Source of the DNA: Pseudoalteromonas translucida KMM 520
GTDB taxonomy: Bacteria > Pseudomonadota > Gammaproteobacteria > Enterobacterales > Alteromonadaceae
Direction of reading: 5' to 3'
DNA length: 32,000 bases
Assembly: GCF_001465295.1 (NCBI RefSeq)
Contig: NZ_CP011034.1
Span: 1,410,001-1,442,000 of the forward strand
Below are positions 7,446 to 21,923 of the stretch, in pieces (the first letter of the stretch is position 1; each line of letters starts with the position of its first letter). The translations under genes were made by a program, and so were the position numbers. Under the pieces are notes generated by a model. The model ran no database searches. It saw only the letters and a program-made list of their open reading frames with translations, and was not told where the DNA came from.

Positions 7446-8897
7446 CTACATGCTTTGTGCGTAGTTATATAAGGCTTTTAAAATGGTTAGGTTTTTTTCA
7501 CTGTCGTCATGCTCATGGGCTAAATTTTCAAGCGTGATCATAAAGTCTTGAGCGTTAATTGAGGGTTGATCTTCCCCGTGCATTAACTTGTTTTGACAAT
7601 ACTGACGCCATTGATCCAGTTCTTGCTGGTTAAGCGTTTGCGGCCAGTTACGAGCGCGGTATCTAAACAATAAAGTATTAAACTTTTTATCTTCAAAATC
7701 GAGTTTTAAATCGGCTAAGTCTTCGGGTTTTGCATCGCGAATAATCGCAAATTTAGCTTTGTCAGCATGGCTAGTAAACCCATCGTAAAGTAAATAGTCA
7801 ACGTTAGTTGTTGCGCTGTAATCGCCTTGCTCGTTAAACACCTCAGTTACTTTATCGCGCAGCTCGCTATTGCCTTTTAACACCGCCAGGTTTTTTAAAC
7901 ATTGCTCGCGGTCAATGCCTAAACGCGCTGCATTTTCAGGTAATAACGTTTTAGCAGGTGCTAAAATAGGGCACTTGTTTAAATGCACTAGTTTTAATCC
8001 TACTGGTAACTCGTCTTCAGCTAAATCAATACGCTTGGTATATAAACGTTTACGTAATTGCTCAACACTTAAATCAATAAGTACTTGTGGGCTTTGAATT
8101 AAATCAAAACAAATTACGGCATTTTTATTTACCGGATGAAAGCTCATAGGTGCAACCCAGCTAGTGCAGCCTTGGGTTGCTGGAATGCGTGAGCTGGTAT
8201 GCACAAGCGGGGTCATGTTAAATACATCAACCAACTCAGCTAAGGCTTTTTTACCGCGTAAACTAAAAAAGAAGTTATACAGCTTTGGCTGCTTGTCTTT
8301 TATTAGTTTAGCCAGTGCAATAGTAGCGGTTACATCGCTTAGTGCATCGTGCGCCGCAGCGTGTTCAATACCGTTGGCAACGGTTAAATGCTCTAACTTA
8401 AAGCTTGGACTACCGTCTTCTTTTAACGGCCATTCAATGCCCTCTGGGCGCAGTGCATAACAAGCACGTACTAAATCAATAATGTCCCAGCGGCTATTGT
8501 TGTTTTTATATTCACGCTCGTACGGGTCGTAAAAGTTACGGTAAAAGCTATAACGGCTTACTTCGTCATCAAACCGAATACTGTTATAACCAGCTACACA
8601 GGTATTTGGCATACTAAATTGTGCATGAATTTTTGCTATAAATTCAGCCTCAACCAAGCCTTTTTTCATCGCCACTTGTGGCGTAATGCCGGTAATTAAA
8701 CACGCCTCAGGGTGCGGTAAGTAATCCGCCTGCGGTTTACAGTATTCAATAAGCGGCTCACCAATAATATTTAAATCAAGATCGGTACGAACACCCGCAA
8801 ACTGGCTCGGCTTATCCTTTTGCGGACTAGCCCCCCAGGTCTCGTAGTCGTGCCAGTATATTGTAGGTTGTGTTTCGTGGTATGTTGGTTCGCTCAT
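7446..8897 (-). CDS. sbcB: Exodeoxyribonuclease I
   Basis: 483 aa. N-terminal DEDDh exonuclease block IYWHDYETWG, HDALSDV (the H-x4-D motif), and overall length and architecture like E. coli SbcB. Confidence 0.9.
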   Translation of the reverse strand: MSEPTYHETQPTIYWHDYETWGASPQKDKPSQFAGVRTDLDLNIIGEPLIEYCKPQADYLPHPEACLITGITPQVAMKKGLVEAEFIAKIHAQFSMPNTCVAGYNSIRFDDEVSRYSFYRNFYDPYEREYKNNNSRWDIIDLVRACYALRPEGIEWPLKEDGSPSFKLEHLTVANGIEHAAAHDALSDVTATIALAKLIKDKQPKLYNFFFSLRGKKALAELVDVFNMTPLVHTSSRIPATQGCTSWVAPMSFHPVNKNAVICFDLIQSPQVLIDLSVEQLRKRLYTKRIDLAEDELPVGLKLVHLNKCPILAPAKTLLPENAARLGIDREQCLKNLAVLKGNSELRDKVTEVFNEQGDYSATTNVDYLLYDGFTSHADKAKFAIIRDAKPEDLADLKLDFEDKKFNTLLFRYRARNWPQTLNQQELDQWRQYCQNKLMHGEDQPSINAQDFMITLENLAHEHDDSEKNLTILKALYNYAQSM

Positions 8898-9035: not shown

Positions 9036-10256
9036 ATGGCAATCAGTGACACCAAATTAAGAAAGCTGCTAGATAAAAATCAAACACCGTGCGTATTATC
9101 GCATAGAGACAGTTTAAGTGTAAGAGTATCAGCCAAAGGCACAATCACTTGGCAGTATCGTTGTCGCGTGGATAACAAACAAGTAATAATATCGCTTGGA
9201 CGTTATCCAGGGCTAAGTATAAAAGAAGCGCAAGACTACATACCACTACTTCAAAACTGGCTAAGCCAGGATAAAGACCCACGAACCGAACTAAAGCTTA
9301 TGCGTAACCAAGCCAAAGGTTTGCCAACAATGGCAAAAGTGGCAACCGACTGGTTAAATAAAAAAGTACCCGACCTAAAAGAAAAAACCCAAACTTTATA
9401 CACAAACCAAGTGGGCAAATGGATAGTGCCGCTTTTAAATGACGAAGCAATGCCACTCGACCTAATGACCATAAAAGACTGGTTTATTTATTTTGATAAA
9501 GTTAAAGAGCAAGGCAGCGCCAAAACTGCCGGCACAATATTAGTGCGCATAAAATCAATAATAGGCTGGGCCGAAAAACGCGGTGAAGCAAAACCATTTA
9601 ACCCAGTACTAACCTTAAACGTAAACGACGTAGGCGAACAAGCAACAATAGGCCAGCGCGTAATGCGCTTTGATGAAATAGCAAAACTGTGGATACAAAT
9701 AGAAAGCTCAAAAGCCACGCCAGCTACCAAAGCATGTTTGCAATTAATTTATATAACAGGCGCTAGGCAATCAGAAGTTCGCTTGGCCAAGTGGGAGCAT
9801 TTCGACTTTGATAACAACATTTGGACAGTACCGCCCGAAAACTCAAAAACAAACCAAGCCATACGCAGGCCAATATCTAAAAAAATGCACAGCATATTAA
9901 ATACACTTGCCATGGTTTACGGCAAAAGCGGCTATTTAATACCGGGCAATAACCCGCGCAAACCAGTAACCACCCACAGCATAAACCGTTACTGCTGCAG
10001 AATGTGGGATCACTTGTTTACTAAGTACAAAACACCCAAGTTTTTACCACATGACGCCCGCCGTTCAATATCAACATTACTCAGCGAAAACGGCATAGCG
10101 CCACACGTAACAGAAAAAATGCTAGGCCACACAATGCGTGGAGTAATGGCAATTTATAACAAACACGACTGGATAAAAGAGCAGGCTGAAGGGTACGAAC
10201 TATATTGCCAATTCATAGATAAGGCGATAGAAAATGAATTTGTAAAGAGCAATTAA
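9036..10256 (+). CDS. int: Tyrosine recombinase / phage integrase, P4-like (N-terminal DUF4102-type arm-binding domain)
   Basis: 406 aa. N-terminus ISDTKLRKL...SLSVRVSAKGTITWQYRCRV is typical of P4-family integrases. Catalytic residues are in order: TGARQSEV (R), HDARRS (H-x-x-R), MLGHT (H) and AIYNKH (Y). Confidence 0.9.
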   Translation: MAISDTKLRKLLDKNQTPCVLSHRDSLSVRVSAKGTITWQYRCRVDNKQVIISLGRYPGLSIKEAQDYIPLLQNWLSQDKDPRTELKLMRNQAKGLPTMAKVATDWLNKKVPDLKEKTQTLYTNQVGKWIVPLLNDEAMPLDLMTIKDWFIYFDKVKEQGSAKTAGTILVRIKSIIGWAEKRGEAKPFNPVLTLNVNDVGEQATIGQRVMRFDEIAKLWIQIESSKATPATKACLQLIYITGARQSEVRLAKWEHFDFDNNIWTVPPENSKTNQAIRRPISKKMHSILNTLAMVYGKSGYLIPGNNPRKPVTTHSINRYCCRMWDHLFTKYKTPKFLPHDARRSISTLLSENGIAPHVTEKMLGHTMRGVMAIYNKHDWIKEQAEGYELYCQFIDKAIENEFVKSN

Positions 10257-10367: not shown

Positions 10368-10712
10368 ATGAATTACCTGTTTTCAGCTATAGATCCAAGT
10401 TATGTTCATAAAGATTTATTTGGGATTGGAGCGATTTTTGATTTAGAAAATGGTCAACAGGGATGGAGTGAAATTCAAGATATAACAGTCGGAGATAAAG
10501 CCGCTGTAATTAATGTGAAACGCAATATCCCAGTTCTATATGAAGTTACAAAAATCGAAAAGTCAGATAAACAGATCGTCGTTTTTGGAAGAGTGATAGA
10601 CAGAATTGATATGAATTATGAAAAGTTTATTCGCCAACATAATATTACTAGCAGTCGTATAAGTTCCAATCATCAGATGATGCAAGGCTTTAATTTGGCT
10701 ATATGGAAATAA
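10368..10712 (+). CDS. Hypothetical protein (cargo island gene 1)
   Basis: 114-aa ORF behind SD AAGGA, in a very AT-rich region. Looks like a beta-strand-rich small soluble protein. No motif recognised. Confidence 0.55.
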   Translation: MNYLFSAIDPSYVHKDLFGIGAIFDLENGQQGWSEIQDITVGDKAAVINVKRNIPVLYEVTKIEKSDKQIVVFGRVIDRIDMNYEKFIRQHNITSSRISSNHQMMQGFNLAIWK

Positions 10713-10850
10713 ACCCTAACAAAATAAATCTATAATATTTATTTGCAAATGACAGTGATTTTAAATGATCCATTGTGCTTATATATTAGGTAGATAATTT
10801 TAAGTCTGTAAATAATTTTTATTCAATTAATTAAAATCTTAGGAGCTACT

Positions 10851-11261
10851 TTGAACAACAAACTTATTGGTGACTCGGGCGAATACTTCGTCTCATATAA
10901 TTTATCCCGAAGAGGGTTATCTTGTGCTCTTATGAACAATGGAGCAAAAGGCGTAGATATTCTTGTTACCGACGATGGAAAAAGCGTTGTTAGCATTCAG
11001 GTTAAAACCTCTCAAGGAAAGTCTCAGCCTAGACAGTGGATGGTTGGAAAGAACGCGCCGAGTGCTTCCAATAATTTTTTCTTCGTTTTTTGTAATATTT
11101 GGAAGGATTTCGACAAGGCCCCTGAGGTATTCATTATTCCTAGTCAGTACGTCAAAGATAATGTCAATTGGGACTCCACAGCCCCCTTATTTAAGATAAC
11201 ACCAGAGGTTGCAGATAAGTATCGAGAAAATTGGGAACAAATACTTGCACTCTTTATCTAA
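10851..11261 (+). CDS. Small PD-(D/E)XK-like (Hjc/restriction-endonuclease-fold-like) protein, putative nuclease (cargo island gene 2)
   Basis: 136 aa. TTG start 5 nt after a strong SD, AGGAG at 10841-10845. GDSGEYFVSYNLSRRG...GVDILV...VVSIQVKT gives an E11...D36...Q50-x-K52 arrangement on an alpha-beta-beta-beta pattern compatible with a minimal PD-(D/E)XK core. The fold call is by eye only. Confidence 0.5.
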   Translation: MNNKLIGDSGEYFVSYNLSRRGLSCALMNNGAKGVDILVTDDGKSVVSIQVKTSQGKSQPRQWMVGKNAPSASNNFFFVFCNIWKDFDKAPEVFIIPSQYVKDNVNWDSTAPLFKITPEVADKYRENWEQILALFI

Positions 11262-11391
11262 ATGTAATTGATTAATATGCTGGTTGTATTGACCCACTAA
11301 TAAAGGTAGCAAACTGTGGTATATCCATATTATTAATTATAAATAGATAACTAAAACATTTAACAATGTGTTGATATATTAAGGGATTAAA

Positions 11392-12432
11392 GTGTCGTCG
11401 AGTGAAGAGCAATTAGATAGACTGTCTGCAGCCGCAAAAAAAAATAATAACATTACCGAGAAAATAGTTGAGAGAACAGTCACATTTTCTCAGGTTTGGT
11501 TTACTTTAATAGCACCTATCATAATAGGTGTTGCAGCTACTTATTTCACTTCTGATAAAAAAGATGATTTAGGCGGTTTAGTAATCGCACTTATTTGTAT
11601 AGTCATAGTTGGTTTTATAATAGTACATATTTTTCTATCATATATAAGCCATGAATATAGTAAAAAAGAGTCTTTATATGCTGAAATCGTAGACATGAAG
11701 CATCAAAAAGATCAAGAAGTTGGAAAATTAAGAAGTGAGTTAGCACAAAATAAATTAGGTCTTAGGAGGATAACTGATTTATATAGCAATCAAATATCAA
11801 GCCTTTACTTATCTGCGCATGCTACAGATATAGCAATAGGTGACTTAAAGAAAATGGAAATTGATGATAAAAATGTCACAGAAGATGATTTTTGGAATAA
11901 AGTAACAACCTCATTAAGTCCAATATTGCAACCACTTATTATTGAACGAGAGTCGTTATTTGGCTTCAAATCTGAAGGGAAGTATAATGTGGCTTTATAT
12001 TTTTATGATGCTGACGATGATGATTTAGGTATTGTTTGGAGGGATTGTGATAGCCGCTTACCTCAAAGGAATAGAAATTGGAAACCAGGGCATGGACATG
12101 TTGGGCTAGCATTTTTACACAAAGAGGCAAAGTTTTGTCCTGATATCACAATGAGTAGTGAGCTTAACCCAAGCTATACGAGTAGCGATGGTTCTAATTA
12201 TAGAAGTTTTATATCAATACCTATACTTAGATGTGATGATAATGGAGAAATGCTTGAAAATGATATGAAGCCGTTAGGAGTATTAGTTCTAACGAGTGCT
12301 AAACCGGAGCAATTCATAAAAGAAAGAGATTTGCGCTTTCTTACTATTATTTCTAAGCACCTTGCCATATACTTATCATCAGTAGAAACATTTTTAAGTC
12401 ACAATGTGTTGATTGAAAATGATGCAGAATAA
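11392..12432 (+). CDS. 2TM membrane protein with coiled coil and C-terminal GAF-like domain (cargo island gene 3)
   Basis: 346 aa. GTG start behind SD AAGGGA. Two hydrophobic helices: VWFTLIAPIIIGVAATYFT and LVIALICIVIVGFIIVHIFLSYI. A charged heptad-like segment follows (KESLYAEIVDMKHQKDQEVGKLRSELAQNK). The C-terminal ~150 aa show a GAF-like pattern: GHGHVGLAFLHKEAKFCPDI ... YRSFISIPIL ... PLGVLVLTS ... FIKERDLRFLTIISKHLAIYL. Confidence 0.6.
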   Translation: MSSSEEQLDRLSAAAKKNNNITEKIVERTVTFSQVWFTLIAPIIIGVAATYFTSDKKDDLGGLVIALICIVIVGFIIVHIFLSYISHEYSKKESLYAEIVDMKHQKDQEVGKLRSELAQNKLGLRRITDLYSNQISSLYLSAHATDIAIGDLKKMEIDDKNVTEDDFWNKVTTSLSPILQPLIIERESLFGFKSEGKYNVALYFYDADDDDLGIVWRDCDSRLPQRNRNWKPGHGHVGLAFLHKEAKFCPDITMSSELNPSYTSSDGSNYRSFISIPILRCDDNGEMLENDMKPLGVLVLTSAKPEQFIKERDLRFLTIISKHLAIYLSSVETFLSHNVLIENDAE

Positions 12433-12434
12433 GG

Positions 12435-12632
12435 ATGGGTAGATTTATGAAAGAAAAAAATAATGTTAAAAAACAAAATCAAAATCAAAGTAATGCTTCT
12501 ACAGAATCTTTAAGTATGTCTCAAGGTCTAGAGCTAATTAAGGCTATCAAGAACGAGCCCTCTAAAGTAGATGAATGGTTTAGTAAGCAAAGGTTAGAGA
12601 TGCACAAGTTTGCCAATACCTTAGTTAATTAA
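12435..12632 (+). CDS. Small hydrophilic protein, translationally coupled to the GAF protein (cargo island gene 4)
   Basis: 65-aa ORF starting 2 nt after the upstream stop (TAAGGATG). Rich in N, Q and K at the N-terminus, with a helical C-terminus. A terminator follows immediately. Coding status is less certain because of its size. Confidence 0.4.
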   Translation: MGRFMKEKNNVKKQNQNQSNASTESLSMSQGLELIKAIKNEPSKVDEWFSKQRLEMHKFANTLVN

Positions 12633-12636
12633 TATA

Positions 12637-12657
12637 GCCCGCCAAGCGGGCTTTTTT
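12637..12657 (+). terminator. Rho-independent terminator closing the cargo cassette
   Basis: GCCCGC-CAA-GCGGGC followed by TTTTTT, 5 nt after the stop codon at 12632. Confidence 0.85.
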
Positions 12658-12764
12658 GTGCCGGTATAAATGTCACCTCGGGCCAAACGGCCCAACCTTG
12701 TTTTAACCTTAACGGTAACTTAGTATATAAGTTTGCAATATTATGGAAAATAAAAGGATTAGGC

Positions 12765-13355
12765 ATGTTAAAAATTATTGGTTGGGTATTAGGTATTGTA
12801 GCAATTGGCTTTGTGGGTATGTACTTCGACAAAGGCGAGTTTTTAGCCGGGTTCGTTTGTGTGCTAGCAATTGGTTTTTTAATACCGCCGTTGTTAAATA
12901 AAATAAATAAAAACAGCAAAGAAAGCGCAGAAAAAAAAGGCAAAGAATATAAAGAGCTAACGCCAAAATCCAGTATCATCGGTGGCGTTGTGTTGCTTAT
13001 AATTGCAGCTATCATGGGTAATGGAAGTAGCAACAATGAACAAGTAGCATTACCAAGCTGGTATGACAGTAGCGCAACAGAGCTAGTATCAAAAAAAGCA
13101 TCTGATTGGCACAAAGCAACCGACTCACAAAAGCTATCAGCAAGCGCAGATATAATTTATACAGTATGGAAAGATGGTAAATTAAAGCCAAAAATCAGCA
13201 ATAAAATTAAAAGCGTTGACGACATAAAGCCATTTGCTAATGGCCTAGCAAAAGAATTAGATAAAGCTTTTGATGGCAGCCCATCAGAAACAGGCGCTAA
13301 CCCAGCCATTAAAGAAGGAGCTGTTACGCTACTAGTTCTTAATGGATGGATATAA
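12765..13355 (+). CDS. Membrane protein of unknown function (stand-alone moron; possible superinfection-exclusion type)
   Basis: 196 aa. SD AAGGA lies 6 nt before the ATG. Three hydrophobic segments in the first ~90 aa (IIGWVLGIVAIGFVGMYF, FLAGFVCVLAIGFLIPPLL, IIGGVVLLIIAAIMG), then a soluble K/D-rich domain. Bracketed by two terminators. The opposite-strand ORF 12629-13114 was rejected. Confidence 0.65.
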   Translation: MLKIIGWVLGIVAIGFVGMYFDKGEFLAGFVCVLAIGFLIPPLLNKINKNSKESAEKKGKEYKELTPKSSIIGGVVLLIIAAIMGNGSSNNEQVALPSWYDSSATELVSKKASDWHKATDSQKLSASADIIYTVWKDGKLKPKISNKIKSVDDIKPFANGLAKELDKAFDGSPSETGANPAIKEGAVTLLVLNGWI

Positions 13356-13373
13356 ATAAACACCAAACAAACA

Positions 13374-13396
13374 GCCCGCACTTAGCGGGCTTTTTT
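13374..13396. terminator. Rho-independent terminator (probably serves both the moron and the convergent CI gene)
   Basis: GCCCGC-ACTTA-GCGGGC followed by TTTTTT. It lies between the stop at 13355 (+) and the stop at 13416 (-). The stem and tail are identical to those of the terminator at 12637. Confidence 0.8.
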
Positions 13397-13415
13397 GTGC
13401 CTGCAATTTAGCAAA

Positions 13416-14036
13416 CTAAAACGACTTACCTGCAAATATTATTTTACCTACCAACGTACAGTTGCCGTTTATTGCTATTAGTTGTTCTGGCCAGTTAGGG
13501 TTAGCTGCTTTTAAAAACTTTTGGCCGCTTTCAATTATAAGCTGTTTAAAGGTGGCTTCGTTGTTGTCATCTAAACGCGCTACTACGTACGAACCGTGTA
13601 TGCACTCGGCTTCAGGGTCCACAAAAATTAAATCGCCCTCATAAAATTTAGGCTCCATGCTCACGCCTTGCACTTTCAATACAAACGTTAGATCACTGCA
13701 ATTAACTGGGCACATAAAGCGTTCGGCATCATAGGCTTTAATTTCGCTAATTTCAGACCATGCACCTGCTTGTACCCAGCTTATAAGCGGGGCAGTTGCC
13801 TTAATTGCTGGTCCTGGCGAAACGTTACTATTTATGTTTTCAATTACACCAAATTGCAAAAATTCAGGAGTGCACTGTAACGCTTTTGCTAGTTCATTTA
13901 TTTTTTTAGTAGTTTTAGTTGTTCCATCTTCAATCCTTTGGAGTGATTGCTGAGCTATCCCAATCATTTCTGAAAGCTTAACTTGAGTTAAATCTAGTTC
14001 TTTTCTTCTTTCTTTTACTCTTTTTCCAATGCTCAT
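13416..14036 (-). CDS. CI-type prophage repressor: XRE HTH plus LexA-like S24 autopeptidase domain
   Basis: 206 aa. N-terminal HTH is RRKELDLTQVKLSEMIGIAQQSLQRIEDG. The C-terminal S24 domain carries the catalytic Ser block VQGVSMEPKF and the Lys in LVGKIIF. It is divergent from a Cro-like gene. Confidence 0.9.
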   Translation of the reverse strand: MSIGKRVKERRKELDLTQVKLSEMIGIAQQSLQRIEDGTTKTTKKINELAKALQCTPEFLQFGVIENINSNVSPGPAIKATAPLISWVQAGAWSEISEIKAYDAERFMCPVNCSDLTFVLKVQGVSMEPKFYEGDLIFVDPEAECIHGSYVVARLDDNNEATFKQLIIESGQKFLKAANPNWPEQLIAINGNCTLVGKIIFAGKSF

Positions 14037-16585: not shown

Positions 16586-19072
16586 GTGGCTAACCCGAAA
16601 CCAATTGACCTAAAAGCCCTTAGACTATCTAGCGTAGCCGAGGGCTTAATTACGTCTATTAGCGATATTGATAACCGTAACTTTTTAGCGCGCGGCCTGC
16701 AGGCTGTGCCTGTTCCGCTGCAAAGCAGAATGGCCCGCAAATATATTGACCGTTATAACCAAAAAAAGGCGGGTAGCGAATACCGCGCTAATACATGGTT
16801 GCGCCGTGTTATTGGTCGTTTAAAGCCACGCTTTGGCGTGTTGTTTAGTATTACTCAAAATATGCCATTGCCATGGCATATTTTAAGCAGTATTGAAAAA
16901 ACCAAAAAGCATGCAAATACGCTGGCTATTGAATGCCTGCAAATTGCGCTTGATGTAAGCGAAGAGCACCAGCACCTACCTTATGAAAAAATAGTATCGT
17001 TAACCTACGATGCAATAGCTGATCACGCTAAAGCTGTGGGTGCTAACGTACCCTTTTACGCTATGCGCGAAGAAAGCTTACCAACTGAATGCTACGAAAT
17101 TGCACTACTTAAAATGCAGTGCGACAAGTGGTGGGCGCGCCAATTAAAAACCCTACGCCGCCAGTTTTTAGAATTGCTAGAAATTGCCACCGGCCAAGTG
17201 GGCAAAGACCTATACCACGACAAAAAAAGCAAAAAGTTTAAACGTAAAGGCATTAGCCCGTACTCGTCAAAACAAGCGCAGCGTGAGTTTAACTTTGCCC
17301 AAGCCAGCGGCCGCCAGTTTTTAGAAATGATGGAATTACAAAGCAGCGATGGCGACGTAATAAGTTTAATTGAGGCGGTTAAAAGCGGCATGGCAAACCC
17401 AGCCAACCGCCGTAACGAATTAATGCTACGTATACGCGAAACCGAAGAGCTAGCCGACGAAATGGGTTACGTAGGTGTTTTTTACACTATTACGTGCCCG
17501 TCGCGTTTTCATGCCAACTCAAGCAAGTGGAGCGGCGAAACCCCAAAAGACGCGCAAAACTATTTAACCCAAACATGGGCGCGTGCTCGCTCTAAATTAA
17601 ACCGCCGTGGCCTTAAGTATTTTGGCGTGCGTGTTGTAGAACCACATGCCGACGGCTGCCCGCATTGGCACATGATGTTATTTATGCCAAAAAACAAACT
17701 GCAAGAAGTAAACGCTATTTTGCGTTGGTACTTTATTCAAGAAGACAAAACAGAGCTTTACGATTACTACGGCCCAGTAGCAACTCGCGCCAAAGTAGTT
17801 ACCGAATGGGTAGATATAAACACCCATGGCGTACACGTTAAAACCGTTGAAAAGTGCGTGAGCTATCGTGCAGGCACTAAAAAAAGCGAGCTGTTTAAAA
17901 CCTACAAACAAAAGCGCCGCGAGTGGGGCCTTAAAAAAAGCCAAGGCAAAAAAGCCAAAGCGCCTAGTAAGTTTTATCGTACATTTAGCCCACGCTTTGA
18001 CGCCATAACAATGGATAAAAGCAAGGGCAGTGCGGCCAGCTACATTGCTAAATACATTAGTAAAAATATTGATGGCTACATGCTGGGCGATCATGAAGAT
18101 GCTGAAACAGGCGAAAACCTGCAAGAGCAAGCTAACCCCGTTTTAGCCTGGGCTAGTACGTGGAATATTCGCCAGTTTCAATTTCAAGGTTCACCAAGCG
18201 TTACCGTGTATCGTGAATTGCGCCGCCTGCCAAAAGGCAAAGCAATAAGCGACGAGACCATAGAGCCTATTCGCCACGCTGCCGACACTGCCAACTGGAA
18301 AGACTACGTAAAATTACAGGGCGGCATGTGTATTGGCCGCGCTGCTAACTTTAAATCAATGTACGAGCTAACCCCGCAAGGCAACGACTACGCCGAAGTA
18401 GTGCGCCGCATTAAGGGCGTGCTTACTAATACTGACTACAAAGCCGTGCTTAAGCGCACGCTAGAAAACGTGCATAACGTAATTGCCGACACCAGCTTAA
18501 AAACGCGCCTTATCGAATGGACAAGACAGCTCAAGGGCACAGCCGAAAAACTCAGTGCTAAGGCTAGCACCAACGTCGGCGCAGCCGACCTATCTTGGAC
18601 TAGTGGTAATAACTGTACGCCTATCGCCGCAGGCTCTAGAGCTGAGTTGTTACTTGATGCCGTGGGTTTATCAAAAACCGACCTTGATGATCTGGTAAGT
18701 GATCTAAATAGCGGAAAAAGGATCAGTAGAAACGGGCTAATTTATCAAATTCGCGATGGGCAGTTACATACATTAGACGAAAACGCCCAGCTTAAGCAAA
18801 ACAAGCAACTCGATATTGAATACCGAGCGCAAACACTCGCGCAAAAATCAGCTAGCTGGCACATAACCGACGCGCATTGGCAACAAGCACGCGATTTTGT
18901 AGAGCTTGCTTATAAATACGCGCAGCTCGATGGACGTAAATCACTTAATAACACCACCAACGAACGCGGACTAGTCACTATTGGCGATTGGGACCTAGTT
19001 AATTTGGTTAAACAAGGCAGTGCATCAGCAATCAGCGACAACGATTGGTGGGCACTGGATTTAATGGCGTAG
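16586..19072 (+). CDS. Replication initiation endonuclease, P2 GpA family (rolling-circle HUH nickase)
   Basis: 828 aa with a GTG start. HUH block VVEPHADGCPHWHMMLFM and tyrosine block SAASYIAKYISKNIDG, as in P2 A / 186 A proteins. Positioned after the early operon. Confidence 0.85.
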   Translation: MANPKPIDLKALRLSSVAEGLITSISDIDNRNFLARGLQAVPVPLQSRMARKYIDRYNQKKAGSEYRANTWLRRVIGRLKPRFGVLFSITQNMPLPWHILSSIEKTKKHANTLAIECLQIALDVSEEHQHLPYEKIVSLTYDAIADHAKAVGANVPFYAMREESLPTECYEIALLKMQCDKWWARQLKTLRRQFLELLEIATGQVGKDLYHDKKSKKFKRKGISPYSSKQAQREFNFAQASGRQFLEMMELQSSDGDVISLIEAVKSGMANPANRRNELMLRIRETEELADEMGYVGVFYTITCPSRFHANSSKWSGETPKDAQNYLTQTWARARSKLNRRGLKYFGVRVVEPHADGCPHWHMMLFMPKNKLQEVNAILRWYFIQEDKTELYDYYGPVATRAKVVTEWVDINTHGVHVKTVEKCVSYRAGTKKSELFKTYKQKRREWGLKKSQGKKAKAPSKFYRTFSPRFDAITMDKSKGSAASYIAKYISKNIDGYMLGDHEDAETGENLQEQANPVLAWASTWNIRQFQFQGSPSVTVYRELRRLPKGKAISDETIEPIRHAADTANWKDYVKLQGGMCIGRAANFKSMYELTPQGNDYAEVVRRIKGVLTNTDYKAVLKRTLENVHNVIADTSLKTRLIEWTRQLKGTAEKLSAKASTNVGAADLSWTSGNNCTPIAAGSRAELLLDAVGLSKTDLDDLVSDLNSGKRISRNGLIYQIRDGQLHTLDENAQLKQNKQLDIEYRAQTLAQKSASWHITDAHWQQARDFVELAYKYAQLDGRKSLNNTTNERGLVTIGDWDLVNLVKQGSASAISDNDWWALDLMA

Positions 19073-19080
19073 GAGAAAAT

Positions 19081-19347
19081 ATGACTATTCAAATTTCAAA
19101 GGTACTCATGCCAAAGGCATGTATTAGTTGCCAGGCATTTTGCCCAAAAGGTTTTGCAGAGGATCAGCACAGCCCGTTTGTTACAAAATTCGATAAGCCC
19201 GCGCCTAAAACCCAATACGGCCAGTGCGGAAAAAACAAAAACAGCGTATTTGCTACCGAAATTTGCACCGGCTATCAGCAAGAACCTAGCGCCAACGTAT
19301 TTACAGTAACTAACAGACCACAACCAAAACAGCAGGTGACATTATGA
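19081..19347 (+). CDS. Small Cys-containing hypothetical protein
   Basis: I prefer ATG 19081 behind SD GGAGAA (MTIQISKVLMPKACISCQAFCPKGF...). About 88 aa, with C-x2-C-x3-C plus two later Cys. A terminator follows. Confidence 0.45.
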   Translation: MTIQISKVLMPKACISCQAFCPKGFAEDQHSPFVTKFDKPAPKTQYGQCGKNKNSVFATEICTGYQQEPSANVFTVTNRPQPKQQVTL

Positions 19348-19399
19348 ACACTATCTTTAAAAGTGACTATTAAAGTTAAAAACTTCAAATCATAAAAAA

Positions 19400-19426
19400 G
19401 GCTGACATGGGATGTCGGCCTTTTTT
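19400..19426 (+). terminator. Rho-independent terminator ending the early/replication operon
   Basis: GGCTGACAT-GG-GATGTCGGCC stem (one G.U pair) followed by TTTTTT, and preceded by AAAAAA. Confidence 0.8.
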
Positions 19427-19501
19427 ATGCCTGAAATTCATAGACTTTATTTACACCGGAATGTTATATAGATACGCAATTTTAAAAATGGATTCAACGG
19501 A

Positions 19502-20254
19502 ATGCTTAAGTGGTTAGATAAATGTTTAGATAATTTAAAATCCCCTTATTGGGAGTTTTACATTTTAGTGGGGGCTGTGATATTTGGTATTTCAGGTAGT
19601 ATTGTTATTTTTATTGACCCAAATGGGTCAGCTGAAAAGTTTAATAATATAGCAAGTTTCTTAGGTGGCTTGTTTACTGTTATTGGTGTGATCATTGCTT
19701 TTATTGCATATGAAAGAAGTAAAGTGCAGCACAAAAAAAATAGACTATTAGATATTCAATCAGAAATTGAGTTTGAGATACTTCCTAAACTAGTAAATAG
19801 CATGAATTCCTGTTTACACCATGGGGTTTATTCGTTAAGGGTAATAAGGAATGGTGAGGCAATCAACAATGAAACCATTACTAAAATATTAAAAAATATA
19901 GATGAACTAAGCATAATTAGGAAAGAGCTTGAGACTAAAACTGGATATTTAAATAAATTAGGTGGTTTGAAAAGTAATTATGAAGATAGCTATGAAGAAC
20001 TTAATTTATTAATATGTATGATAATTCATTTGTATAAAGCTCAAATTGAATACATAAAATCAGAACCTAAAAAACTAGAAGAACTAGAACTTCGTTTAAA
20101 AATGGCTTTTAGCACTTATCCTTTTTTCTCACGTTATGTTGTAAATGTAATAGAAAGCGATAAAGAACACATTTCAAAGGTGTTATTAATGCGTTGTAAA
20201 CTCGAATCTAAGATATCAGATGTTTATAAATACTATGGCTTAAAGCCCAATTAA
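19502..20254 (+). CDS. 2TM membrane protein with helical cytoplasmic domain (second cargo slot; candidate exclusion/abortive-infection protein)
   Basis: 250 aa in an extremely AT-rich segment (one 60-nt line counted by hand gave 20% GC). Two hydrophobic helices: FYILVGAVIFGISGSIVIFI and FLGGLFTVIGVIIAFIAY. The remainder is K/E/L-rich and helical. It sits between the replication module and the Ogr-like/portal genes, the position of tin/old in P2. Confidence 0.6.
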   Translation: MLKWLDKCLDNLKSPYWEFYILVGAVIFGISGSIVIFIDPNGSAEKFNNIASFLGGLFTVIGVIIAFIAYERSKVQHKKNRLLDIQSEIEFEILPKLVNSMNSCLHHGVYSLRVIRNGEAINNETITKILKNIDELSIIRKELETKTGYLNKLGGLKSNYEDSYEELNLLICMIIHLYKAQIEYIKSEPKKLEELELRLKMAFSTYPFFSRYVVNVIESDKEHISKVLLMRCKLESKISDVYKYYGLKPN

Positions 20255-20485
20255 CTCTAACTGTTGTTCTCGAGGTAAATTTTTAATAAGCGCTGCCGCT
20301 AATTGTTGTGTGCTTTGTACCGGAGGGTTTAAGAAGTGATCAAACGATTGGGTAATGCGAAACGTTGCCCCGCACTCGCGAGTATTAGTGCAAGAGCAAT
20401 ATAAATTTACTACGTGCGCACTTTGCGTTTCACGCGATGTAATCGTAGCTTTAGCTTCGCAATTCGGACAAGTAACCCGCGCCAT
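20240..20485 (-). CDS. Ogr/Delta-family zinc-finger transcriptional activator (late gene activator-like)
   Basis: MARVTCPNCEAKATITSRETQSAHVVNLYCSCTNTRECGATFRITQSFDHFLNPP. From memory this aligns with P2 Ogr: CPxC...TSR...Y-x-C-x-N-x2-C-x-ATF-x-T-x-S. I prefer the ATG at 20485, behind SD GGTGA. The tracked ORF extends to 20497. Confidence 0.8.
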   Translation of the reverse strand: MARVTCPNCEAKATITSRETQSAHVVNLYCSCTNTRECGATFRITQSFDHFLNPPVQSTQQLAAALIKNLPREQQLELIGL

Positions 20486-20513
20486 AATATTCACCAATCG
20501 TTAATAAAGTACA

Positions 20514-20529
20514 CTGTCATTATATACAG
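20514..20529. promoter_or_regulatory. Canonical LexA (SOS) box overlapping the -10 of the Ogr-like gene promoter
   Basis: CTGT-CATTATAT-ACAG (CTGT-N8-ACAG) lies inside the longer perfect inverted repeat TACACTGT/ACAGTGTA (20510-20533). On the minus strand the same DNA reads TTGTTA-N17-TATAAT, about 30 nt upstream of the Ogr-like start. Confidence 0.7.
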
Positions 20530-20590
20530 TGTATTTGTGCATAACAAATAAGCATTTACAAATAGCCGCAATATACCTAAAATAAATTAA

Positions 20591-20608
20591 TTATCACTTA
20601 AGTGATAA
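20591..20608. promoter_or_regulatory. Perfect 18-bp palindrome (operator candidate) just downstream of a promoter-like element
   Basis: TTATCACTT|AAGTGATAA. It lies 8 nt after the candidate promoter TTTACA (20555-20560)-N17-TAAAAT (20578-20583) and 20 nt before ATG 20628. Confidence 0.55.
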
Positions 20609-20627
20609 GTAATTTGAGGGTTTTAGC

Positions 20628-20900
20628 ATGCAATATTTATATAAAGGGTCACAAAGCCAAGAGCGATTAGATTGGTTATTCGCTATGTGTAAAATTAAAA
20701 GTGCCGACATAAAAGCCGCCGCGAGCGATCATCTAGTAAAAGGCATAAGCAAAACCCATGCAGCACTGTTAAATAACGTACCCGCGCCAAATTTAACGCG
20801 AGCATTAAAAACCTTAAATACCTATGCCGAATTAGTCGAAAAAATAAAAGCGCACGATGCGCAGCATAGCCAGTACTACGCTTTACGCGCTGGGCTCTAA
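20628..20900 (+). CDS. Small regulator-like protein, possibly PapB/FaeB-family HTH
   Basis: 90 aa. LDWLFAMCKIKSADIKAAASDHLVKGISKTHAALLNNVPAPNLTRALKTLN resembles the PapB-family layout (helix, xDyLVxG, HTH, then a second helix). This is a weak call by eye. Its 3' end overlaps the portal 3' end by 18 nt. Confidence 0.35.
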   Translation: MQYLYKGSQSQERLDWLFAMCKIKSADIKAAASDHLVKGISKTHAALLNNVPAPNLTRALKTLNTYAELVEKIKAHDAQHSQYYALRAGL

Positions 20901-21923
20901 ATCAAAATTTAGCTGTAACTTACTGCCTATTTCAGGATCCCTTGCTACTTCATCACTCATTAATTTAATAAGCGGTTTAGTCTCGTTTTTAAAATACATG
21001 GCGTCGTATTTAGTTGGGTCGCCAAGGCCTGCATTGTTGGCCGGAATAATACCCGCCAAGCCCGGCGGAAAACGGTGGGCGTTTAATATATCTTGCGCCG
21101 ATACGTTTTTAACATTCATAAACTCGTCTTTACTTTCAAAGTTACCCACAGGAATTATTTGTAAGCCTTTTTCTTTACCGTTGGGTATGTTTACAAACAA
21201 CGAGCGAAAGTTACCCACGCCTTTACTGTCTGAAATTTTTTGCTGTAGTTCTTCTTCAACGTCAGCGTCTAAGTTAGGATCAGTCGCGTACATAATAAAA
21301 CCCATGTGCGCACCGTTTAAAAAATACTTACGGCGGAATAGCGTAGCGTCTTCATTTAATAACGTGGCTTGTAAGCCCCCTAAGTAATCGGCCAAACCAT
21401 ACACTTGCTGCACTGGGTCGTACTGGCGAACCCAAATAATATCGCGCTTTTTATATTTTTTAACTTGGCTATTACGCTCAAGCACCACCGCGCCACCATC
21501 ACCACCAACACGAGTACGGTAACTAGGCAGCGGAAACAACCTTACAATTTGCCCAAAGCCATTACGTATTTTAAGTAGTGCCACATCACCAAATTGCACC
21601 AAGTTTAAAAAGCCTGCTTGTACTTGCTGTGCACTCATACCGCCACTAATAAAACGGCTAGCCGCCATATTGGCACGGCTTTGCACTATGCCGCCGTGCT
21701 GGGCATTACGCCGTGTTAAGTTTGCTAATAAATGGCGGTCTACTGGCGGCTCCCAATAATTATCCATATCGTTATAAAAAAGCGAGTCGTAATCGGTTAG
21801 CCACATATCTGGCATTACTTGCTCAGGCAAGCCAAACACAACGGGCGCATTTTTATTATCTGGTTGATCGTGTGGCTGGTCTGTTAACTGCTCAGCGGTT
21901 TGGTCTAATTCTGCATTATCCAT
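20883..21923 (-). CDS. Portal protein, P2 GpQ family
   Basis: 346 aa (from memory P2 Q is about 344 aa). It lies immediately downstream of the large terminase, overlaps it, and is divergent from the scaffold and capsid genes. This is the canonical P2 Q-P / O-N-M-L layout. Confidence 0.85.

Follow-up and report, generated by a model that had tools for sequence, protein, structure and literature searches.

A mobile two-gene cassette pairing a membrane GAF protein with a small downstream partner in a Pseudoalteromonas prophage: a possible SpoIIS-like module

Which function could a temperate phage draw from a membrane-anchored GAF protein and a tiny partner encoded between its integrase and its repressor? 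The question is raised by a 32,000-nucleotide stretch of the genome of Pseudoalteromonas translucida KMM 520 (NCBI RefSeq assembly GCF_001465295.1, contig NZ_CP011034.1, positions 1,410,001 to 1,442,000), hereafter the window, in which a P2-like prophage carries a gene for a 346-aa protein followed directly by a second, much smaller gene. All coordinates below are window positions. A first-pass annotation, made from the sequence alone, had proposed a sensor-effector or toxin/antitoxin (TA)-like pair. The TA-like option fits best, because the cassette is autonomous, patchily distributed and mostly mobile, and because two validated toxins share its build. By analogy with these two systems, SpoIISA/SpoIISB and toxFtsL-D9:PanA, the cassette may be a toxin-first membrane TA or abortive-infection module, a reading that we hold to be evenly balanced between right and wrong. 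The other option, a sensor-effector driven by cyclic nucleotides, finds no positive support.

The architecture and fold of the large protein provide the starting point. The two open reading frames (ORFs) exist as first described, at 11392–12432 (346 aa) and 12435–12632 (65 aa), both on the plus strand. The larger one starts with GTG, 5 nt after a Shine-Dalgarno sequence, AAGGGA, read at 11381–11386 on the same strand. Its product is 100% identical to the NCBI protein PTRA_a1541, annotated as 'hypothetical / GAF domain-containing'. A 19-residue Kyte-Doolittle scan finds exactly two hydrophobic segments, with peaks of 1.84 (~residues 30–53) and 3.27 (~61–85) against a maximum of 1.15 elsewhere. 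An AlphaFold model derived from an alignment of 30 family sequences, with a mean predicted local distance difference test (pLDDT) score of 85.8, places helices at residues 2–53 and 61–90, a single long helix at 95–157, and an alpha/beta domain at 164–337. Hydropathy, model, and alignment agree on transmembrane (TM) helix 1 (~residues 30–53; 11479–11550, plus strand), with the family-invariant residues W36, P42, and G46, and on TM helix 2 (~61–85; 11572–11646, plus strand), with the invariant H79. The TM hairpin that had been proposed is thereby borne out. The charge distribution flanking the hairpin leaves its topology unfixed. Because the hairpin has two helices, the N-terminus and the GAF domain share one face of the membrane, which we infer to be the cytoplasmic one.

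The long helix (residues 95–157; 11674–11862, plus strand; pLDDT ~88–97) joins the hairpin to the GAF domain. It had been described as a heptad-like linker. The linker is a continuous helix, but its heptad signal is modest, with a hydrophobic fraction of 0.67 at the a/d positions in the best register; a dimerisation coiled coil is possible.

The C-terminal GAF domain, also claimed initially, stands on firmer ground. It covers residues ~164–337 (11881–12402, plus strand) and is recognized by Pfam, Foldseek, and conservation. Pfam assigns GAF_2 at 36.2 bits (cutoff 28.6) and GAF at 29.0 bits (cutoff 22.4) over residues 202–328, and 52 of 60 superfamily members match GAF_2. In a Foldseek search of the PDB, essentially all of the top 50 matches to the model are GAF domains or GAF-containing proteins, at probability 1.0. 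They include 1f5m, 5w10, 3ksf, and 2zmf, with target-side TM-scores of 0.6–0.8, and span yeast and bacterial fRMsr, Lcd1-cAMP (5w10), phosphodiesterase GAFs, and phytochromes. Sequence searches of the PDB, with a profile and with the single 346-aa protein, returned nothing significant. The sequence motifs quoted in the first-pass annotation sit on predicted elements of this domain, namely helices 235–243 and 310–337 and strands 272–278 and 296–302. The 346-aa protein is a GAF-domain protein.

Conservation within the domain is concentrated in R217, D220, R222, R228, W230, and a G233-x-G235-H236-x-G238 motif, followed by Y270, S272, P277, G296-V297, and T301-S302. GAF domains that bind cyclic nucleotides bear an NKFDE signature. 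By inspection, the equivalent positions appear to read T301-S302...F308...R312-D313 and not NKFDE, an equivalence drawn by eye rather than from a computed structural alignment. The position of the catalytic Cys of fRMsr is occupied, again by inspection, by Val237.

The small downstream gene is the second constant of the system. The ORF called mechanically starts 2 nt past the stop codon of the GAF gene, which is the spacing first reported. The closest relative, locus L001, has no ATG matching 12435 and keeps the one equivalent to 12447, with a conserved AAGG..GGGTAG before it. Hence, the partner most likely starts at ATG 12447, 14 nt past the GAF stop, and comprises 61 aa (12447–12632, plus strand); the 2-nt spacing applies to the mechanical ORF and not to this start.

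We compared 24 non-identical loci, drawn from one-genome-per-species contigs, exact-protein look-ups, and IMG/VR viral contigs. A co-oriented small ORF lies directly 3' of the GAF gene in every one of them, with 59–78 aa in 23 loci and 109 aa in one, and it is kept even where the GAF proteins are only 22–27% identical to that of the window (L011, L013, L015, L017, and L027). The gap between the two genes, measured in 20 loci, ranges from −44 to +46 nt, and the genes overlap in 13 of these. In three pairs of small ORFs, the proportions of nonsynonymous (pN) and synonymous (pS) differences are 0.13/0.79, 0.24/0.78, and 0.30/0.97. Because pN is far below pS, the small ORF is translated and under purifying selection. 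The two proteins also diverge together: their pairwise identities correlate across loci (r = 0.86), a value reached by none of 2000 Mantel permutations, indicating joint inheritance of the GAF protein and its partner. The tight coupling claimed at the outset is thus upheld, and the GAF fold, the hairpin, and a conserved, translated ORF, whose absence would have spoken against the pair, are all present.

The partners themselves are weakly conserved in sequence. Those from gammaproteobacteria align with a thin signature, S-x-S...L...W...S-x-x-Y/F, which can also be seen by eye in the partners of L017 and L027. They are hydrophilic (GRAVY −0.3 to −1.2), with a pI of 4.5 to 10.4 across homologues. 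A single-sequence AlphaFold model of the window partner predicts a disordered, Lys-rich tail of ~23 residues (1–23; pLDDT ~55), followed by a helical hairpin (24–36 and 38–60; pLDDT >90). The partner matches no Pfam family and has no helix-turn-helix (HTH), ribbon-helix-helix, or AbrB domain. Foldseek finds no meaningful structural neighbour for its model, the best match having an E-value of 3.6.

Both genes are enclosed within clear boundaries. Directly 3' of the small ORF lies an intrinsic terminator on the plus strand, AGCCCGC-CAA-GCGGGCT followed by TTTTT (12636–12662; hairpin 12636–12658). The GAF gene, its partner, and this terminator form a discrete low-GC cassette (11376–12662) between integrase and repressor. 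The surrounding prophage is inserted beside the host gene sbcB (7446–8897, minus strand). Its integrase (9036–10256) is followed by five plus-strand cargo genes within 10368–13355, then by an S24/HTH repressor of the cI type (13416–14036, minus strand), a cro-like gene, a Dam-like methylase, and gpA (16586–19072), and, past gpA, by the portal, the terminase, the gpO scaffold, and a P2-type capsid protein. GC content is 33–36% in the cargo interval compared with 40–50% in the remaining prophage.

Comparison of DNA sequences delimits the cassette further. The match to L001 covers only 11376–12656, that is, the ribosome-binding site, both genes, and the terminator, together with a fragment of the repressor gene further on. 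L030 and L032 are other Pseudoalteromonas strains that lack the prophage and have the same sbcB/dehydrogenase flank (~84% identical); within the cassette region, only 11431–12616 matches, at 71%. As these prophage-free strains share both the flank and the pair, the two genes travel together between the prophage and a chromosomal hotspot. Upstream of the cassette, no operator-like palindrome was found, only AT-rich micro-palindromes. An internal promoter candidate for the partner, analogous to PB in spoIISA, was considered at 11960–11988 (score 10/12) and rejected: the −10 hexamer coincides with the codons for Tyr198-Asn199, which are invariant, and the −35 hexamer lacks conservation.

How widespread is this arrangement? 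An exhaustive profile search recovered 523 clusters formed at 50% identity with E ≤ 1e-3, of which 339 reach E ≤ 1e-10. Most members of this superfamily are ~300 aa long, with a match spanning both the TM region and the GAF domain; those sampled share P42 in TM1, the H in TM2, and the GAF core motifs. In a name-bearing protein database, a 60-sequence profile retrieved 32 close relatives among 8000 candidates scored, and a scan of IMG/VR with the 30-sequence alignment (A1) showed that the cassette recurs in viral contigs. The superfamily is large, unnamed, and found in diverse bacteria as well as phages. No PADLOC 2.0 or NCBIfam model is matched by either protein, and both give only non-significant matches in PHROGs (E ≥ 0.004). 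Matches of the TM/helix region or the partner to ZapG-like, 8xMP, DUF4231, MAG1210, TIGR04402, and phrog_35253 were far below cutoffs and were discarded as noise. No match was obtained in an annotated phage collection (megablast and tblastn) or in a plasmid collection (tblastn), and a full-text literature search found no described system composed of a GAF membrane protein and a mini-protein.

Structural comparison extends the family towards phages of other hosts. The best matches in BFVD are uncharacterised 'membrane proteins' of ~250 aa, aligned over the full length of the query (297–325 columns, E-values of 1e-6 to 8e-4): A0A9E7NJ10 from Gordonia phage Finkle, and A0A8S5TS05 and A0A8S5UTM1 from uncultured phages. 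As the matches are full-length, phages of unrelated hosts carry the same build. With a size near the 248 aa of SpoIISA, these proteins may link the present family, SpoIISA, and cargo genes of actinophages.

The genomic contexts of the relatives are diverse and largely mobile. The module adjoins the repressor of a Mu-like prophage; it lies between a C5-cytosine methylase and an integrase at several Pseudomonas prophage ends, between glmS and Tn7 tnsA/tnsB, and between two Tn7-like elements. Elsewhere, it is found 10 nt past the type I restriction-modification (R-M) gene hsdR, in an island that also has VspR and a helicase, in an integrase/Rep_trans element with an ApaLI R-M system, and beside another integrase. 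Linkage to mobile elements or R-M systems is seen in 10 of the 17 loci from outside the viral database. The distribution of the module is patchy and shows horizontal transfer. Across the 24 loci, the small protein is the only conserved neighbour, no third gene being kept beside the pair. There is likewise no cyclase or other signal-producing enzyme as a conserved neighbour in these loci, and no cyclase domain in the five genes of the window's cargo island or in 10 other window ORFs that were scanned. The initial observation that no cyclase is encoded nearby therefore holds. Nothing in the 24 contexts positively supports cyclic nucleotides as the input, and no PADLOC Pycsar or CBASS model matches.

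Two further observations concern these neighbourhoods. Genes for c-di-GMP turnover (GGDEF/EAL) occur within a few kb of the module in three of the 24 loci (L005, 6725–7816; L006, 788–4237; L011, 10514–10876) and are the only nucleotide-signalling neighbours seen. Their proximity is probably due to chance, as such genes are numerous in these genomes and their spacing is variable. In L015 (6276–10906), and also in L016, the module is followed on its 3' side by genes for a 502-aa protein without a Pfam match, a 90-aa HTH protein, a 346-aa protein, and an ApaLI-type R-M pair, a region that looks like a small defence island.

The closest functional parallel among known systems is SpoIIS (SpoIISA/SpoIISB, with SpoIISC; Pfam PF14171 and PF14185; PDB 3O6Q). 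In SpoIISA of Bacillus, three TM helices are joined to a cytosolic GAF domain that dimerises; both parts are needed for toxicity, and the protein disrupts the membrane (PMC6562991). Its antitoxin, SpoIISB, is a natively disordered 56-aa protein encoded directly 3' of the toxin gene, which wraps around the GAF dimer and neutralises it (PMC6562991; PDB 3O6Q). The B. subtilis copy adjoins a prophage, sequence conservation in the family is very low, and SpoIISB also lacks a DNA-binding autoregulatory domain (PMC6562991). The cassette of the window shares the order of genes, with the large one first, the N-terminal TM helices, the GAF-fold domain, and the tiny downstream partner (45–56 aa in SpoIIS antitoxins). 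There are also differences. The window protein has two TM helices, a 60-residue linker helix, and 346 aa, unlike SpoIISA with three TM helices and 248 aa; its hosts are Gram-negative, and the cassette resides mostly on mobile elements. Its partner is predicted to have a disordered N-terminal third and a helical hairpin, and shares no detectable sequence similarity with SpoIISB. The window protein is not a detectable member of the SpoIISA family; our best estimate, by analogy, is that it would work like a SpoIIS-type module, although it should not be classed as one.

A second parallel is toxFtsL-D9 of Gelidibacter mesophilus, identified through NetFlax. This 281-aa protein, annotated as 'GAF; FtsL; transmembrane', is toxic (Ernits et al. 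2023, PMC10440598). Cells exposed to the toxin form filaments and have delocalised FtsZ but show no depolarisation; the adjacent antitoxin, PanA, neutralises it (PMC10440598). Likened by its published description only, toxFtsL-D9 (WP_027127282.1) resembles the window protein in combining TM, helical, and GAF regions, and its length is near the ~300 aa of the superfamily. Its antitoxin, unlike the partner described here, is a Panacea (DUF4065) protein and not a protein of ~60 aa. At the loci with Pfam calls, no Panacea/DUF4065 partner occurs, and the ORF beside the GAF gene is small and without a Pfam match. No Gelidibacter protein was among the matches of the 60-sequence profile (the 8000 candidates scored) or of a single-sequence search (P0068) in the name-bearing database.

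Other two-component designs are more distant. Effectors of the pyrimidine cyclase system for antiphage resistance (Pycsar; PycTM) and of the cyclic oligonucleotide-based antiphage signalling system (CBASS; 2TM-SAVED and others) carry a TM module at the N-terminus and a small-molecule sensor at the C-terminus and are found in defence islands and on mobile elements. The window protein resembles them in joining a TM module to a C-terminal sensor-type domain. To our knowledge, however, these effectors always occur with a cyclase or CD-NTase and have no obligatory small protein partner. The window protein differs in having a GAF fold rather than a cyclic nucleoside monophosphate-binding or SAVED domain, and in keeping its small partner. 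It matches no PADLOC effector model, and neither the window nor the related loci have a conserved cyclase neighbour; hence, it is not a Pycsar or CBASS effector. Lambda RexA/RexB-type modules, such as CarolAnn gp43/44 and Sbash gp30/31, also comprise two genes with a membrane component beside the repressor and are expressed in lysogens (PMC6426606). The likeness ends with the two genes, the membrane component, and the place in a prophage near the repressor, since RexB-like proteins have four TM helices and no GAF domain, their partner is a DUF4747 protein of ~280–370 aa, and no relationship in sequence or fold exists. The prophage defence systems of Gordonia phages CarolAnn and Sbash were thus set aside as RexAB-like and unrelated to the cassette. 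With generic type II TA systems, the cassette shares a compact two-gene operon, translational coupling, and a patchy mobile distribution; unlike these, its partner has no DNA-binding domain for autoregulation of the operon.

A working model can be outlined from these comparisons, in which toxicity, direct binding, neutralisation, the trigger, and any anti-phage effect are borrowed by analogy from the validated toxins. The large protein would enter the inner membrane through its two-helix hairpin, leaving the long helix and the GAF domain exposed to the cytoplasm. It would dimerise or oligomerise through these two parts, and the resulting oligomeric state would control a harmful activity of the hairpin; if unrestrained, the protein would damage the membrane or block division. 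The partly disordered partner, translated from the same mRNA, would bind the GAF/helix part and hold the large protein inactive. Loss, titration, or displacement of the partner, whether by phage infection or by loss of the element, would then release the effector. The outcome would be abortive infection or exclusion to the benefit of the prophage, or addiction to the element. In its broadest form, the proposal describes a family of ~500 clusters with an anti-phage or addiction function, in which a GAF domain restrained by a mini-protein senses infection and switches the hairpin to a lethal lesion of membrane or division. We regard this extended version as tentative and rather doubtful.

Several observations weigh against a SpoIIS-like TA module. 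An hhalign comparison of the 60-sequence alignment with the 3O6Q chain gave a probability of 0.05% and an E-value of 0.85, and 3O6Q is absent from the top 50 Foldseek matches in the PDB. The window protein has no match to PF14171 (SpoIISA_toxin) at E ≤ 1, nor is this family listed for the 60 superfamily members; SpoIISA, used as a control, matches PF14171 at 8e-101 and has no Pfam GAF match itself. The partner matched no antitoxin family, SpoIISB_antitox included, and no upstream promoter or operator was identified for the cassette. In seven of the 24 loci, the module is part of a one-to-three-gene insertion between housekeeping genes, which a non-conflict role would also explain. Finally, the invariant charged residues R217, D220, R222, and R228 of the GAF domain suggest a specific ligand site, which a pure TA model does not need.

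This last point leads to a ligand-gated membrane effector as an alternative. Here, the GAF domain would bind a small molecule made by the phage or the host, such as a nucleotide or a stress metabolite, and would drive the hairpin to oligomerise to a pore in a manner similar to Pycsar PycTM or CBASS 2TM effectors, the partner being an accessory or modulator. The dense invariant cluster of polar and charged residues completed by W230, placed beside a generic G-x-G-x-x-G, fits this proposal, as do the bona fide GAF fold near ligand-binding GAFs (Lcd1-cAMP and fRMsr being among the top matches), the conserved polar or helix-breaking TM residues (W36, P42, G46, and H79), and the prophage and defence-island-like contexts. 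Much of the conserved set (G-x-G-x-x-G, Y-x-S..P-I, GV-V-TS), however, is on our reading generic GAF core, the universally conserved partner is left unexplained, and neither a conserved signal-producing neighbour nor a PADLOC match accompanies the module. As a stand-alone explanation, ligand gating is improbable; it is compatible with a TA module and could coexist with it.

A comparable weight, still on the unlikely side, falls to a non-lethal pair acting in superinfection exclusion or membrane signalling, which would alter envelope or injection functions, or signal to the host, as a form of lysogenic conversion. The module lies beside the repressor in two unrelated prophage types, a position typical of exclusion genes, and toxFtsL-D9 acts on the divisome without depolarisation, so that TM-GAF proteins need not be pores; the seven housekeeping-flanked loci also suggest long-term tolerance. 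Exclusion proteins, though, are usually encoded by single genes, and an obligate, co-diverging, translationally coupled cytoplasmic partner would have no clear role. In Tn7-like and R-M contexts, moreover, blocking phage injection brings no obvious benefit. The location of some loci between core genes, the ubiquity of GAF domains in housekeeping signalling, and the presence of fRMsr enzymes among the nearest PDB folds could instead point to a regular stress or redox sensor of the cell that has a small regulatory subunit and hitch-hikes in the prophage without any part in genetic conflict. This appears very unlikely. The distribution is patchy and horizontal, the cassette is found at one chromosomal site whether or not the prophage is present there, GC content is below that of the surroundings, and the cassette recurs in viral contigs. 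In addition, the TM hairpin is the sole output domain, and Val237 replaces the catalytic Cys of fRMsr.

The remaining cargo of the prophage deserves a brief description. Immediately 5' of the GAF gene, with no predicted terminator in between, a gene at 10851–11261 (plus strand) encodes a 136-aa protein. This protein strongly matches phrog_29029 (E 5e-45), of unknown function; matches to PD-(D/E)XK_5 and YraN-type nucleases are weak, and a D..D-I-L..Q-V-K motif can be seen by eye. The gene is not kept beside the GAF/partner module at other loci. On the other side, an exact 18-nt direct repeat, AGCGGGCTTTTTTGTGCC, occurs at 12645–12662 and 13384–13401. Its copies form the 3' half and tail of two near-identical terminators that flank a gene for a 196-aa membrane protein (12765–13355), which matches phrog_23065 (E 9e-24). 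As the repeat brackets this gene, it suggests an insertion or duplication through recombination at the cassette terminator. Further downstream, within a low-GC stretch at ~19000–21000, a 250-aa ORF (19502–20254, plus strand) encodes two N-terminal hydrophobic helices and a helical C-terminal part. It is placed between gpA and an Ogr-like zinc-finger gene (20240–20497, minus strand) plus the portal gene, at the classic old/tin cargo hotspot of P2. The ORF has no significant Pfam match (E ≤ 0.001), no PADLOC match, and only a sub-threshold NCBIfam match; the same prophage may thus hold another uncharacterised gene for membrane cargo or defence. At the sbcB site of the prophage-free strains, three ORFs of ~135 aa without a Pfam match lie downstream of the module, interspersed with a Na/H exchanger gene (L030, 7761–8168, 10744–11151, and 11662–12072; also in L031 and L032). 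These could be copies of one gene, or an array of cassettes, at the sbcB hotspot.

GAF-based membrane toxins known from experiment amount to two cases, SpoIISA and toxFtsL-D9. The family delimited here follows the same logic, is much larger, and has no name; temperate phages, Tn7-like elements, and R-M islands carry it repeatedly. The invariably linked mini-protein and the clean boundaries make the cassette convenient for cloning and assays. Should it turn out to serve in defence or addiction, PADLOC and NCBIfam would gain a family that both now lack, and the cassette would stand as the counterpart of SpoIISAB in Gram-negative hosts and on mobile elements. A phage-defence role would then also be suggested for SpoIIS-type systems, which have had no assigned function since 2001. 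GAF domains would thereby gain a role in the conflict between prophages and their hosts, and the cassette would be a manageable model in which to study how a two-helix membrane effector is controlled by a soluble sensor domain.

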